Shown: positions 46,882 through 52,025 of the stretch, piece after piece | Position numbering within the stretch: position 1 is the stretch's first letter | Layout: the number at the start of each line of letters is the position of its first letter | Origin: a virus | IMG/VR virus record: IMGVR_UViG_3300045988_127310 | Strand: one strand, 5' to 3' | DNA length: 64,000 nt | The notes under the pieces: model-generated | What the model saw: the letters and a program-made list of their open reading frames with translations, nothing else | Database searches by the model: none | Told to the model about the DNA's origin: nothing | Position numbers and translations under genes: made by a program

Positions 46882-47679
46882 TTAATTGGACATAAATATA
46901 CGAGTTTTACTAAGATATCCTTCTGTCATCTCTATGAAATTCACACAATCTAATTTGCTTAACTTGTAAATCAATGCCGGATTGTGTACTATGGCTATAA
47001 TCTGTGTTTGTGGTTTATGGAATGACAATACATTATAAATTTGCATTATGTTGTCAATGTCAAGATTCCTATCTGGCTCATCCATGAGAACCGTGTATTC
47101 AAAACTGCTTTTTGTTAATGTTATGCGGTTTCTTTCATAATACTTCAACAGGTTATCAATTCTTTTAATCCAAAACGCATTTGATTTTTTCTTGTATTCT
47201 ACAAGATCTTGTATTGGAAATGTATAATCCTTTTGACCGAACATTAAATTGAAAAGTGATTCCAATGATAACACCACTTTCTCTCCATAAGATCTTCGAA
47301 TATTATTCACATACAAATCTAAGTTGCTGATGTTTTTCAATACGCTATCTCGATTCATCTCCGCCGATGGCAATAAACGGAATACTTTCCCTGCATAATC
47401 GGATGATATGTCAATCCCATCAAGAACCTTGTCATCATCATCAAATATAGGTGGAAAATCCAGTGCCTCGATCGGTATTTCAGAGCACATGGACTTCTCG
47501 CATAACGCATACATTGATATGATGTTAAGCAAGGTTGATTTTCCACTACCGTTTTTCCCTATAATCACATTCACTCCTGGCTTGAAAATAAATTCTCTGC
47601 CATTTTCAAATGCTTCTATATCCGAAACATATTCAAATGGAGTTTTTGTATTGTCTTTTATTTTTACTGATGTTATCAT
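46882..47679 (-). CDS. minimal ABC-type (AAA_21-like) ATPase
   Basis: Walker A (GKNGSGKST), a signature-like SYGEK motif, Walker B plus D-loop (TVLMDEPDRNLD) and an H-loop (IAIVHN). There is no coiled-coil or nuclease domain. Confidence 0.7.
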   Translation of the reverse strand: MITSVKIKDNTKTPFEYVSDIEAFENGREFIFKPGVNVIIGKNGSGKSTLLNIISMYALCEKSMCSEIPIEALDFPPIFDDDDKVLDGIDISSDYAGKVFRLLPSAEMNRDSVLKNISNLDLYVNNIRRSYGEKVVLSLESLFNLMFGQKDYTFPIQDLVEYKKKSNAFWIKRIDNLLKYYERNRITLTKSSFEYTVLMDEPDRNLDIDNIMQIYNVLSFHKPQTQIIAIVHNPALIYKLSKLDCVNFIEMTEGYLSKTRIFMSN

Positions 47680-47690
47680 TGTAATCCTTT

Positions 47691-48545
47691 TTAAAAATCA
47701 ATTACCGCCCGAACCATGTCTCCGATGTGCTTGTTGCCGGTGCCCGTGAGGCCACTGGAGAAGACCACGTACCACGCGACGGCCTGGCTGCTCTCAGTAC
47801 TGGACCAATACCACGTCGAGGAGAGGGGAGATGCCGAAACATAAGTGAATGCTTTGTTTAGTTCGTCCATATAATGGGCCATTAAATTTAATTGACCAAG
47901 AGATGGTATATACTCGCCATCTTCCAGCAGATTTCTCAATTTTGGATTTCTGGTTACAAGGCGTTCCGTATTGCCGCGTCCGTCAATGTCAAACAGCGCA
48001 TCACATTCACGTTCGTAATATGTCCCACTTCCGGATTCTTCACGGCTATCATCGTCAAGCAATTGTATGATATCATGCTCCGTCAGTGAGATTGCAAATG
48101 ACATGTATCTGTGCTTCAACCCAATGTATCGTACACAATCTTTGGAGTTATCGCCGGTAAACGGCTCTGCATGTCCGTCTTTGTAGATTATATACAGTCC
48201 GTCAGTTGACTCTTTCTTATCCTCTTCGGATGGTACTCTGTTTTCACATGTACATTTCTCACTTTTGGATCTTACGATTATATTCAACTCATTTAATACA
48301 TGATCCCTGATGACGCTCTCGCACGCTTCTCTTACAAAATCATGATCTCTTCGTTTGAGTTCATCATTCACCATGCATCTGATCCAGTTTTCTATCTGGT
48401 TGTCACCTCCATATGTATTAACCATGTACCGTTTTACGTGTTTCTCCAATAACGGCTCTATGTTTTTGATTATATCTTCTTTGGTAAGGTGAAGTTCATT
48501 TAATATACAGCTCCTTACTGCCTTGCATTCTTTACTTGTGCTCAT
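47691..48545 (-). CDS. hypothetical protein (284 aa), immediately upstream partner of the ABC ATPase
   Basis: Its stop lies 12 nt before the ATPase start. Cys/His-containing, with a GC-rich island at its 3' end. No motif recognised. Confidence 0.55.
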   Translation of the reverse strand: MSTSKECKAVRSCILNELHLTKEDIIKNIEPLLEKHVKRYMVNTYGGDNQIENWIRCMVNDELKRRDHDFVREACESVIRDHVLNELNIIVRSKSEKCTCENRVPSEEDKKESTDGLYIIYKDGHAEPFTGDNSKDCVRYIGLKHRYMSFAISLTEHDIIQLLDDDSREESGSGTYYERECDALFDIDGRGNTERLVTRNPKLRNLLEDGEYIPSLGQLNLMAHYMDELNKAFTYVSASPLSSTWYWSSTESSQAVAWYVVFSSGLTGTGNKHIGDMVRAVIDF

Positions 48546-48556
48546 GATATGCCCAT

Positions 48557-49024
48557 TTAATACTGTGAATCATATTTTCTTTCTCTCCCGCTGTCTTCCC
48601 CTATAGGATTATCCCATCCGTATTTTACAGCCGTAGCTTTAAATAGAGGTAGCCCGTAAAATCCATAATCATCCTCATCCCAGTCTTCAAGACCTTCTTC
48701 CAGGATGTAGTTCCACATCATTACACATTCAAACATTAAACTGGCTGATATTCCTCTCTGATTTAATGCCTTTTCAAAACCGAATCTTACATCTTCCTCA
48801 AGCTGTTTCAAAACATTCTCCCTGGTAAATTCAACTACAGTACTGTTCCACCTTTCTTCGTTATTGTATTCTTCGTTCGGCTTCATACCGAAATCCTTTA
48901 TCATGTTATATGGGATAAATTTAGCCAGTCTGTTAAAATCTCTACCGTCTAAACATCTTGATGTTAATTCTTTAAGTTGTTCTAATGTTTTCATAAGCAA
49001 TTTTGTTTTATAGGTTAATCCCAT
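48557..49024 (-). CDS. hypothetical acidic helical protein (155 aa) translationally coupled to the nucleotidyltransferase
   Basis: Overlaps the upstream nucleotidyltransferase gene by 10 nt. Contains no histidine at all, so it is not a HEPN domain. Confidence 0.5.
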   Translation of the reverse strand: MGLTYKTKLLMKTLEQLKELTSRCLDGRDFNRLAKFIPYNMIKDFGMKPNEEYNNEERWNSTVVEFTRENVLKQLEEDVRFGFEKALNQRGISASLMFECVMMWNYILEEGLEDWDEDDYGFYGLPLFKATAVKYGWDNPIGEDSGRERKYDSQY

Positions 49025-49677
49025 CCTCCAGTAGTGTACAAAGATATATCTTCCTCCTCTACGTTTACACCTTTAATAGCCTGTAGAAGTTTTTTCTTTG
49101 TCTCCCGGCACATATTGTAACCATATCCTTTATACCGATATGAGCGCTCCCATGTACTTACTGGAAAAGGGATATTTTCGTCAATAACCAGCCTCTTCAT
49201 ATGAAGATGTTCGAAGAATTTCTCATGATAGAGTAGTTTGTACTCGTATGCTACTATACTTGCAGATGAGAATGGAAAATAATCATCTTCTTTTTCTTCG
49301 TATTTGGGCTCCTTATAGTAAGCCATTTTTGTCACAGTAAAATCGAAGCTCCTAAGAATCTCTTTCGGCTTTCCAAACTCTGACTCTATGAACTCTATCC
49401 ATACCTTTTCTCCCTCTTTCTGGAACGCACATACCTTCTCATTTCTGTACTTAAATTTCCATCCTTCTTTCTGATGTTTTTCATCATTGAACAAATCAAC
49501 AGCTTCCTGAAAATCGCTTTCACTTTCAAAGAAAATATCAATATCTTTCACTTTTTCTCCGGAAAGGATATTCTTAAAACATCCACCAGCTATGAACCCT
49601 TTGTGACCTTCCATATACTTGTCAAGCCATCTTATTTGCCAGAAATTATCTGGAGTATCTATTACAAAATTGTTCAT
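49015..49677 (-). CDS. nucleotidyltransferase with a PolyA-polymerase/CCA-adding-enzyme head-domain motif (Pol-beta superfamily)
   Basis: FIAGGCFKNILSGEKVKDIDIFF matches the GGxVRDxLLGxxxKDxDh head-domain signature of class-II tRNA nucleotidyltransferases and poly(A) polymerases. It is only 220 aa, lacking the usual body and tail domains. Confidence 0.6.
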   Translation of the reverse strand: MNNFVIDTPDNFWQIRWLDKYMEGHKGFIAGGCFKNILSGEKVKDIDIFFESESDFQEAVDLFNDEKHQKEGWKFKYRNEKVCAFQKEGEKVWIEFIESEFGKPKEILRSFDFTVTKMAYYKEPKYEEKEDDYFPFSSASIVAYEYKLLYHEKFFEHLHMKRLVIDENIPFPVSTWERSYRYKGYGYNMCRETKKKLLQAIKGVNVEEEDISLYTTGGWD

Positions 49678-49695
49678 ATCGTTTGTATTTTGCTG

Positions 49696-49950
49696 TTACC
49701 AAGCGAGATAAAAATTCCGCTTCACAATAATACAGTGAGTGTAATTGCTTAGGTCGATTCCATTGTCCGTAAATGTATCCAGGACCCGTTTTTCCACGTA
49801 TTTGAGTTTTACTGTTATCCCCTTCTTAAACACTTCTATTAACTTCTCATTGCACTCAATAGGTCCAATAAAACAGTACCTATTTGAAGGACTGTCTGAT
49901 ATACAATATGTCTGACATCCTAACATGTTGCTTAAAATATTCTCATACAT
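49696..49950 (-). CDS. hypothetical protein (84 aa)
   Basis: Colinear ORF. Confidence 0.4.
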   Translation of the reverse strand: MYENILSNMLGCQTYCISDSPSNRYCFIGPIECNEKLIEVFKKGITVKLKYVEKRVLDTFTDNGIDLSNYTHCIIVKRNFYLAW

Positions 49951-50075: not shown

Positions 50076-50549
50076 TTATCCTCTATTTACTTTTTTCTTT
50101 ATTTCTTCCGCGATCTCTTCTAATGTTGTTGGAGATAAATAATCATCTATCCTCAACTCTCTTACATAATCTAAGCAATCCAGACCCTTAGCATCTATTT
50201 CCTGCCTCTCTTCGTCGACCCACCTTAAAGTGCCATTTTCTCCACATTCCGGGCATTTGTCAGCTCCACATGGAAGAAGCATTTGTGCTCCACATAAGAC
50301 ACATCTTACCCAGTCTCCGTGCTGCACCCCTTCGTATGTTCTTGTTTTCATATTTGTCATTTTATCATTTACAACTTTCACTTCTTCGCTCCACAAACGT
50401 ATCTTATATATCGGAGTGATGCCGATCAGAATACCACTATCTTCACCCCAATACTGAAGTGTTTTGGACTCGATTTTATGATGCAATTCCTGTATTCCTC
50501 CTTTGTTTCTGTCATAAGGATAAAAATCAGATAACTTTATCGTTTTCAT
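50076..50549 (-). CDS. zinc-ribbon protein (157 aa)
   Basis: CVLCG...CPECG. Confidence 0.5.
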   Translation of the reverse strand: MKTIKLSDFYPYDRNKGGIQELHHKIESKTLQYWGEDSGILIGITPIYKIRLWSEEVKVVNDKMTNMKTRTYEGVQHGDWVRCVLCGAQMLLPCGADKCPECGENGTLRWVDEERQEIDAKGLDCLDYVRELRIDDYLSPTTLEEIAEEIKKKVNRG

Positions 50550-51283
50550 TTTTCTGGATTTTCAGCAGTTTCTAAAAGACATCCATTGCCCTCAAAAGGA
50601 ATGCAATAATCCCATAATGTTCCATTGAAACATTCATACTTATAAGGCAATCCATTATAATCGTCCACAATTTCCCTTGCAAACAAACTGATATTCCATT
50701 TTTTATTTCCTTCTTTTCTTACCAGCACTTTGTCAAACGGCTTAAAATCATATTTCGGTTTTTCTTCAATTCCGAAGAAGCGTTTCAGATATTCTTTTGC
50801 TTTAGGATTTTCGCTTTTCTTTAACGCTTTAATCATCTTCTGTTTTTCCGAATCTGTTGCAAGTCTATAACATTCTATGTGGTTTTCGTGTGCAGCAATA
50901 TTATCCGATATATTAAGACTTGTTCCCGCTGCAAGACTCGCATACAAAGATGTTAAATATTTCCCATGCATATTTAAAATAAAAATATAACTTCCATCTT
51001 TGTTGCTTAACACATCTCCATCTTTAAATGTAGTATATTCCGGGACTTCAAGAAGGAGGCGATTTTCGCTGCTAAATGCTTTTCCTGTAGCAGAAAACCA
51101 ATCTGCCGATACAGAAATAGAATGAATTACAACCAATAACGGACAAATTGACGAATTGTCTTCATATACTATTTCTGCTCTATTTCGTCCTTTCTCTGTC
51201 ACAATCTGACCTACTCTTTCCCCTATGTTTATTTTTTTCGCCGTTTCTAAATCAAACGGGATTGTTACCATTTTATATTCCAT
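50546..51283 (-). CDS. hypothetical protein, tandem paralog A (245 aa)
   Basis: Shares VPFDL.TA.KI, FK.GDVL...G..FI and DFKPF..VLVR...W...LF...CIP[FY]EGN..LL with 51288..52025. Confidence 0.6.
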   Translation of the reverse strand: MEYKMVTIPFDLETAKKINIGERVGQIVTEKGRNRAEIVYEDNSSICPLLVVIHSISVSADWFSATGKAFSSENRLLLEVPEYTTFKDGDVLSNKDGSYIFILNMHGKYLTSLYASLAAGTSLNISDNIAAHENHIECYRLATDSEKQKMIKALKKSENPKAKEYLKRFFGIEEKPKYDFKPFDKVLVRKEGNKKWNISLFAREIVDDYNGLPYKYECFNGTLWDYCIPFEGNGCLLETAENPEK

Positions 51284-51287
51284 AATC

Positions 51288-52025
51288 TTATTTGTTTTTA
51301 TTGGTTCCTAAAAGATGTTCGTTCCCTTCGTATGGGATACACTGACTAAATCCTACCCCTCCTAAGCATTCGTATTTATTATCTCCTACTGATTCTCTGG
51401 AAAATAGATGCAATTTCCACCTCTCTTGGTTAGTTCTTCTTACCAGCACTCGTTCAAATGGTTTGAAGTCACGTTTCGGCATCTCATCTAATAGATACTC
51501 ATATTCACTTAAATATCGTTTTATTATATCTATTTTTCTACTGTCTTCGGCTTTTATAATCTTTTCTGCTAAAAATTTCTTCTCTTCCTCTATAGCCTTT
51601 CTTACATGCCGTTTTCTATATTCGTCATACACATCAGTCCATGATTTGTAATCAAACCCAATATCTCCAAATGATGCCATTCCGCATATACATCCCATTA
51701 CCCCTTTGGTAATAATTCCATCATATATGAATTGATATCCATTAGTGCTTGTTAATACATCTCCTTTCTTAAAATACGCTCCAGCCTCTACTTTCAATTC
51801 CAGAGTGGTGCCGCCAATAGTACAACCTTCCGTGTTGGCATATATAGCACTTACCCCATATCCATCTTTTTTTACAAAAAGCAAATTATAAGGACCTGCA
51901 CAGTCTTTCGACTCATATACAAATTCTATTTCAATATTATCAATTAATACCGAACCTTCTATTTCTCCGCTTTTAATTTTTCTCGCCGTATTTAAATCAA
52001 ACGGAACAATAATTGGATTTTCCAT
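51288..52025 (-). CDS. hypothetical protein, tandem paralog B (245 aa)
   Basis: Same length and conserved blocks as 50546..51283. Confidence 0.6.
   Translation of the reverse strand: MENPIIVPFDLNTARKIKSGEIEGSVLIDNIEIEFVYESKDCAGPYNLLFVKKDGYGVSAIYANTEGCTIGGTTLELKVEAGAYFKKGDVLTSTNGYQFIYDGIITKGVMGCICGMASFGDIGFDYKSWTDVYDEYRKRHVRKAIEEEKKFLAEKIIKAEDSRKIDIIKRYLSEYEYLLDEMPKRDFKPFERVLVRRTNQERWKLHLFSRESVGDNKYECLGGVGFSQCIPYEGNEHLLGTNKNK

Follow-up and report, generated by a model that had tools for sequence, protein, structure and literature searches.

The 64,000-nucleotide (nt) stretch of DNA analyzed here (the window), from the IMG/VR virus record IMGVR_UViG_3300045988_127310, carries a gut-phage gene for a 220-amino-acid (aa) nucleotidyltransferase (NTase) that is assigned by sequence comparison to the family of Gad2 (Gabija anti-defence protein 2), as a short member consisting of the NTase domain alone. 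This family is already represented in Pfam and PHROGs, and the gene has already been annotated in GenBank. We propose that the protein is a complete, probably active, stand-alone enzyme with an accessory role, which we infer to lie most likely in anti-defence, and we give this reading a probability of about one half. Bacillus phage SPbetaL7 encodes Gad2 as ORF_159, a product of 400 aa with a predicted nucleotidyltransferase domain; SPbetaL7 lacking Gad2 turns sensitive to Gabija, and a 394-aa homologue carried by a Brevibacillus laterosporus prophage abolishes the defence conferred by Gabija (GajA/GajB) (bioRxiv 10.1101/2023.05.01.538930).

Several comparisons place the window protein in the Gad2 family. 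The precomputed Pfam record for the exact 220-aa sequence gives PF26128:Gad2 with no weak or faint mark, meaning E <= 1e-5, and a precomputed PF26128 match is present on all homologues returned by a large protein search. The relation to Gad2 was also tested directly, using the verified B. laterosporus sequence (Supplementary Table 10 of bioRxiv 10.1101/2023.05.01.538930): BLASTP aligned the two proteins with 24% identity over 179 aa (E 2e-11), and hhalign matched a profile of close NTase relatives to the same Gad2 with a probability of 96.6% (E 6e-10). With a 97-sequence profile the match to Gad2 (394 aa) rose to a probability of 99.0% (E 2.6e-18) over 164 columns, which span residues 23-213 of the window protein and residues 23-188 of Gad2. 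As the alignment ends at Gad2 residue 188, the window gene appears to be a short, NTase-only form of the family, and the full Gad2 architecture of about 400 aa is absent from it, the NTase stopping at residue 220. Like Gad2, the window protein is borne by a phage or prophage, is predicted to be a nucleotidyltransferase and carries the signature AGG-x12-DxD-x-[FY]F ... FDFT ... HE.F ... P..S..R...Y...G. Unlike Gad2, it is of half the length and lacks the C-terminal ~210 residues, which the neighbouring gene does not supply, and two lysines conserved in the short family, K35 and K117, are T and M in Gad2. Some distant relatives in Aeromonas phages are long forms, among them a 353-aa homologue (L118 2989-4050) that matches the window NTase in its N-terminal ~186 residues; this homologue suggests that short and long architectures coexist in the family.

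The original prediction, made from the letters of the window and their open reading frames (ORFs), had described this gene as a truncated nucleotidyltransferase coupled to an acidic protein. The 220-aa ORF itself was confirmed (Table 1), but the truncation was not. When 1.84 billion cluster representatives were searched with a profile, relatives (E <= 0.001) turned up in at least 2,408 clusters, defined at 50% identity, and most among the best 150 of these 2,408 relatives are 190-230 aa long, which indicates that the 220-aa NTase is full-length. In PHROGs it was assigned to phrog_4400 (E 2.6e-66), the weaker matches being to families of 365-477 aa. An upstream 84-aa ORF shares its reading frame with the NTase, and gene calls on metagenomes often join the two (as in P0001, of 311 aa), with Q at the stop position. 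The codon between them is TAA in the window, and among 80 relatives it is TAA in 66, TGA in 13 and ACA in one. A fused 311-aa gene was rejected, since the intervening codon is TAA or TGA in 79 of the 80, and the 311-aa fusions therefore look like products of gene calling under an alternative code rather than real proteins.

The residues that define the catalytic head are well conserved in the window protein. The close match of FIAGGCFKNILSGEKVKDIDIFF to motif A of class II tRNA nucleotidyltransferases, on which the original prediction was built, held up: the pattern GGxVRDxLLG-x4-DxD is present, its spacing from the glycines to the aspartates is identical to that of the CCA-adding enzyme of Escherichia coli, and GGCFKNILSGEKVKDID, of equal spacing, aligns to both the E. 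coli and the human CCA enzymes. More generally, the motif can be written GG-x12-DxD. In 97 diverse homologues (32-49% identity), D47, D112, R178 and Y182 are invariant, and A30, G31, G32, D45, F50, F111, F113, P172, Y185 and G186 are conserved in at least 90%; the invariant residues, and those conserved from A30 to P172 and at G186, recur in Gad2. The GG...DxD motif, the FDFT motif and a C-terminal R/Y/G signature are present in the window protein, in these 97 relatives and in both Gad2 sequences, which are also identical over FDFTV. At the counterpart of motif B, apparently, the Asp is retained and both Arg of RRD are lost, the window protein reading S-F-D112, and FDFT falls on RRRDFTINAMA of PDB 6ibp in a weak colinear alignment. 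At the position of motif D the Arg is apparently retained and the E-D pair is replaced by S-T, so that S174-T175-x-x-R178 (S174-T175-W-E-R178) occupies the place of the class II templating E-D-x-x-R. The placement of motifs B and D was made from sub-significant but colinear second HMMER segments together with a reading against the E. coli sequence; the alignment of motif D to ‘QEDYLRILRY’ of human TRNT1 is such a sub-significant segment, in a region where the AlphaFold2 model is of low confidence. The E-D pair of class II enzymes selects CTP and ATP, and that the RRD and ED residues have been lost points to a specificity for nucleotide and acceptor different from that of CCA addition.

The AlphaFold2 model of the NTase, built with 34 homologues, has a mean predicted local distance difference test (pLDDT) score of 79.8, high for residues 1-160 and low for residues 165-220. 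The model displays the class II head-domain fold, and its best structural matches were 3h37 (score 9.9), 3aql (9.9), 4wby (8.7), 9kma (8.5), 1ou5 (8.5), 3wfo (8.3) and 1miv (7.2); these align over 142-153 residues with 13-20% identity, to proteins of 344-517 aa. Lower scores were obtained for TENT5 (6.6), for the head-only structure 2la3 (6.2) and for alarmone synthetases, LnuA, MenT1 and cGLR (all <=5.9), and neither a fold nor a profile match of the cGAS/DncV-like type (CD-NTase/SMODS) was found for the NTase. The protein is a Pol-beta-type nucleotidyltransferase, and among solved folds the nearest to it are the heads of class II CCA-adding enzymes and of poly(A) polymerases (PAPs). A stand-alone protein of Streptococcus pneumoniae, NP_344798.1 (191 aa; PDB 2la3; ‘CCA-adding enzyme head domain’), scores below the full-length CCA enzymes, and PDB sequence searches gave no match between it and the NTase. 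A best match to a different NTase family had been named in advance as evidence against the original prediction, and this was found in part: Gad2 came out as the best match, and Gad2 is a divergent class II-type head in its own right.

At the level of sequence, the relation to class II enzymes is marginal. The Pfam family PolyA_pol (PF01743), which the original prediction had singled out for a search, did match the window protein, but below threshold, with a score of 14.8 bits (E 0.036) where the cut-off is 23, and this was its sole match when the single protein was searched against Pfam, NCBIfam, PADLOC and PDB; the neighbouring protein gave no match in the same searches. Among the 97 diverse relatives, 34 match PolyA_pol at E <= 0.1 (best 1.8e-5) and at most three match any other family, and when PDB sequences were searched with the diverse family profile, class II CCA/PAP enzymes took all of the seven best places, with E values of 0.023-1.1. 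An hhalign comparison with the E. coli CCA enzyme covered 24 columns, motif A only, with a probability of 3.5%.

These results bear on the role that had originally been proposed, namely a minimal NTase that repairs or tags the 3' ends of tRNA or other RNA as a counter to tRNA-targeting host defences. The part that stands is an NTase with a class II-like head; nothing supports the link to tRNA. The nearest solved folds, the motif A spacing and the seven top PDB matches, despite their poor E values, are points in favour of the original proposal, as is the GenBank label ‘polyA polymerase’ on the near-identical gene of phage csAssE-Sib (OR575929.1, 151 kb, human gut), to which the window is 94.6% identical over the locus. 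The protein indeed shares with class II heads (PF01743; 3h37, 3aql, 4wby, 1ou5, 1miv) the motif A spacing and, apparently, the motif B Asp and the motif D Arg, but it differs from them in its sub-threshold Pfam score, its low identity, the loss of the RRD Arg pair and the change of E-D to S-T. In addition, the neck, body and tail domains are absent from the 220-aa NTase, class II enzymes being about 390-450 aa long, and hence there is no evident way for it to hold tRNA; ARAGORN found no tRNA gene in the window; and the closest characterised relative counters a DNA-targeting, not a tRNA-targeting, system (bioRxiv 10.1101/2023.05.01.538930; PMC12904381). A tRNA-directed activity, which would have to do without every feature that makes class II enzymes tRNA-specific, is quite improbable, and the csAssE-Sib gene carries a label, ‘polyA polymerase / CCA-adding enzyme’, that probably misleads.

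The second part of the original prediction, that the NTase is coupled to the acidic protein encoded immediately downstream, was contradicted by the distribution of the two genes. The composition of the neighbour was described correctly: it is acidic (isoelectric point 4.6) and contains no His, and therefore no HEPN Rx4-6H motif. The 10-nt overlap between the genes exists for the longest ORFs (155 aa for the neighbour, 48557-49024, minus strand), whereas the conserved start of the neighbour leaves a gap of 20 nt. The upstream ATG sits within the NTase's own terminal G-G-W-D codons; the second Met (M11; MKTLEQ..., window position 48994) is the start in all 55 of the 55 aligned neighbour homologues; the PHROG profile aligns from residue 11; and both the GenBank entry of csAssE-Sib and independent metagenome gene calls give a protein of 145 aa starting about 20 nt past the NTase stop. 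The overlap is thus probably an artefact of calling the longest ORF.

For the local arrangement, 80 phages of IMG/VR were compared, all with an NTase 94-99% identical to that of the window; they form a near-identical set that reveals local arrangements and not deep co-occurrence. The 145-aa neighbour adjoins the NTase in 42 of them; in 28, a Dam methyltransferase of 220 aa (Pfam Dam, E 1.3e-14) has taken its place, and a 31-aa remnant of the neighbour is left; and in the remaining 10 the neighbour has been cleanly deleted, the next gene following directly. This stretch is a variable spot within one phage species, with equivalents of the window interval in Table 1 at L004-L083 (e.g. L065 1186-1973; L026 4664-4686). 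On a broader scale, the NTase family was found in 134 isolate-phage records and the neighbour family in 68, mostly from Klebsiella, Serratia and Erwinia phages of the Ackermannviridae, and the organism tallies of the two barely overlap: among the matches listed (60 per family), both families occur together only in csAssE-Sib, a close relative of the window phage. In Klebsiella phage Menlow, the genes around the neighbour homologue are unrelated to the NTase. Two possible hidden partners were tested with negative results, Menlow gp077 as a hidden NTase and, as a neighbour homologue, the ~147-aa gene that BF503P-like phages have upstream of their NTase. The idea of a split gene, with the 145-aa neighbour as the missing C-terminal domain of Gad2, was likewise rejected, because the neighbour has no similarity to the C-terminal half of Gad2.

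It is accordingly highly improbable that the two genes form a module in which the acidic protein either cooperates with the NTase or neutralises it, be it as a toxin-antitoxin system of the MNT/HEPN or MenT/AbiE type or as an enzyme with its specificity subunit. The two genes are adjacent on the same strand, their longest ORFs overlap, and the Gad2 of SPbetaL7 is toxic if expressed alone (bioRxiv 10.1101/2023.05.01.538930), all of which would suit such a module; the Pol-beta superfamily fold and a small neighbouring gene are also features of MNT-HEPN pairs, MenT/AbiEii pairs and CD-NTases. Unlike in those systems, PADLOC matched neither the NTase nor its neighbour, and the neighbour has no HEPN motif and is dispensable, being missing in 38 of the 80 phages; the locus does not constitute a conserved two-gene unit with a HEPN protein or a cognate antitoxin. 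The conserved start that abolishes the overlap, the almost disjoint distributions of the two families in isolate phages, the surroundings of the neighbour homologue in Menlow and the lack of resemblance to the Gad2 C-terminal half point in the same direction. The distribution data contradict a toxin-antitoxin or two-subunit pairing and have already largely refuted the module; the 145-aa protein is an independent, optional accessory gene product that is not functionally tied to the NTase.

The contexts of the NTase family elsewhere are diverse. Among the 134 isolate-phage records, 54 are from phages of Streptococcus thermophilus, and the others include phages of Bacillus, Aeromonas, Vibrio, Maribacter, Bacteroides and Listeria; copies also lie in bacterial genomes (Streptococcus, Lachnospiraceae and similar), with prophage-borne ones in Streptococcus and Lachnospiraceae, and one contig of a Bacteroidaceae metagenome-assembled genome carries a copy 79% identical. 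In two genera of S. thermophilus phages, the NTase has a fixed position in the order RecT, exonuclease, NTase, SSB (L084 1778-4579; L119 1278-4089). In BF503P-like Bacteroides phages, a homologue 57-60% identical lies in the conserved order dUTPase, p147 (~147 aa), NTase and a thymidylate-synthase (TS)-like gene, with another TS-like gene, a P-loop protein (AAA_28) and a carbamoyltransferase beside them (L087 456-6489; L002 2906-8335; L088 418-2701). This cluster hints at a link between the NTase family and modified DNA in some phages. Small uncharacterised genes flank the NTase in Listeria phage P35, Bacillus phage Bak10, Lactococcus phage PMBT69 and Maribacter phages, and no neighbour is conserved throughout the family.

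Such contexts raise the alternative of an enzyme of DNA or nucleotide metabolism, which, in the course of phage recombination or DNA hypermodification, would add nucleotides to the 3' ends of DNA or serve to activate modified bases or nucleotides, with escape from defence as a by-product. The BF503P-like cluster and the position between the RecT/exonuclease pair and SSB in the two streptococcal phage genera speak for such an enzyme, and base modification has been given as another route past Gabija (PMC12904381). No TS-like, dUTPase, kinase or carbamoyltransferase gene, however, is present in the 64-kb window, the NTase is flanked here and in the Listeria, Lactococcus, Maribacter and Bacillus phages by unrelated small genes, and the family has no neighbour conserved throughout. 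We regard this alternative as unlikely.

We thus return to the accessory anti-defence enzyme as the preferred reading. It draws on homology to Gad2, the sole characterised members of the family; on the strict conservation of the metal-binding aspartates; and, for its accessory nature, on the patchy spread of the family over unrelated phages, on the prophage-borne copies and on the adjoining variable stretch, which is able to hold a Dam methyltransferase (28/80). In Gad2 (394-400 aa), the counterpart of the window NTase is the catalytic N-terminal half. In the mechanism that we envisage, the DxD metal site of the window NTase would transfer a nucleotide from a nucleoside or deoxynucleoside triphosphate to an acceptor, whether a protein of the defence, the 3' end of a nucleic acid or a small molecule, and would thereby weaken a nuclease-type system of the host, for which Gabija is an example. 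By analogy with Gad2, the NTase may inhibit Gabija itself.

Several observations weigh against this reading. Anti-Gabija activity has been shown only for the long forms of 394-400 aa (bioRxiv 10.1101/2023.05.01.538930), and the C-terminal ~210 residues that are absent here may be needed for targeting. The identity to the verified Gad2 is only 24%, and the PF26128 membership comes from a precomputed record, at the level of E <= 1e-5, which is why the Gad2 relation was examined by BLASTP and hhalign. The contexts found elsewhere, RecT/exonuclease-SSB and dUTPase/TS-like, suit DNA metabolism rather than a clear anti-defence function, and the mechanism of Gad2 was still given as unknown in a 2026 review (PMC12904381).

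In the window, the plus strand holds structural genes up to about 18 kb, followed by a minus-strand block with helicases, exonucleases and a DnaB-like protein and then by a long run of small uncharacterised genes. The NTase sits within this minus-strand run of small accessory genes, downstream of the replication genes; the features of the locus are collected in Table 1. Three further observations concern its surroundings. A 265-aa ATPase of the ABC/SMC type (AAA_21, SMC_N, AAA_23), with no nuclease domain, has its best PADLOC matches among the ATPases of defence systems (mad3, 1.6e-17, followed by AriA, PtuA, LmuB and GajA). A pair of neighbouring genes, each for 245 aa and with no family assignment, forms a tandem of paralogues (31% identity, E 9e-32). 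The 284-aa protein beyond the variable spot, labelled DUF3988 in the csAssE-Sib entry of GenBank, weakly matches an Lcl C-terminal domain (E 2.4e-4, below threshold) over its final ~40 residues, and some metagenome proteins (P0113) consist of the N-terminal half of the NTase joined directly to this protein; such joins are either deletion variants or assembly chimeras.

Table 1. Features of the NTase locus and its surroundings (window positions).
Feature	Position	Strand	Description
NTase gene	49015..49677	(-)	Predicted 220-aa stand-alone Gad2-family nucleotidyltransferase (PHROG 4400; Pfam PF26128 by precomputed record)
Motif A	49528..49596	(-)	Residues 28-50 (FIAGGCFKNILSGEKVKDIDIFF); GG helix-turn and catalytic aspartates D45, D47
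FDFT	49336..49347	(-)	Residues 111-114; putative counterpart of class II motif B (RRDFT)
C-terminal signature	49120..49164	(-)	Residues 172-186 (PVSTWERSYRYKGYG); conserved
Neighbouring gene	48557..48994	(-)	Protein of 145 aa, acidic, all-helical and without His (PHROG 5706); start of the longest ORF at 49024
Variable spot	48546-49014		
Upstream ORF	49678-49950	(-)	84 aa
ABC/SMC-type ATPase	46882-47679	(-)	265 aa
284-aa protein	47691-48545	(-)	
Tandem paralogue	50546-51283	(-)	245 aa
Tandem paralogue	51288-52025	(-)	245 aa

Gad2 is one of few enzymatic inhibitors of DNA-targeting defence, and the significance of the window gene depends on whether the short forms act in the same way. If they are inactive in anti-defence, the gene would be one more accessory nucleotidyltransferase. 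If they are active, the Gad2 problem would shrink to a catalytic core of ~200 residues, the family (at least 2,408 clusters) would far exceed the 170 homologues first reported for Gad2, and gut Bacteroides-type, dairy streptococcal and Listeria phages would become candidate carriers of an anti-Gabija-like activity. A bolder proposal, tentative and in our view rather unlikely, is that the abundant short forms of ~200-220 aa are self-sufficient Gad2 catalytic cores, class II-like terminal nucleotidyltransferases rewired (E-D to S-T, RRD to x-F-D) for an acceptor other than tRNA, for instance the 3' ends of DNA or a protein of the defence, and that through it they disarm end-sensing nuclease defences such as Gabija across phages of Bacteroidota, Firmicutes and Proteobacteria. 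If this were true, they would rank among the most widespread enzymatic anti-defence families and would offer a tractable minimal model for the mechanism of Gad2.
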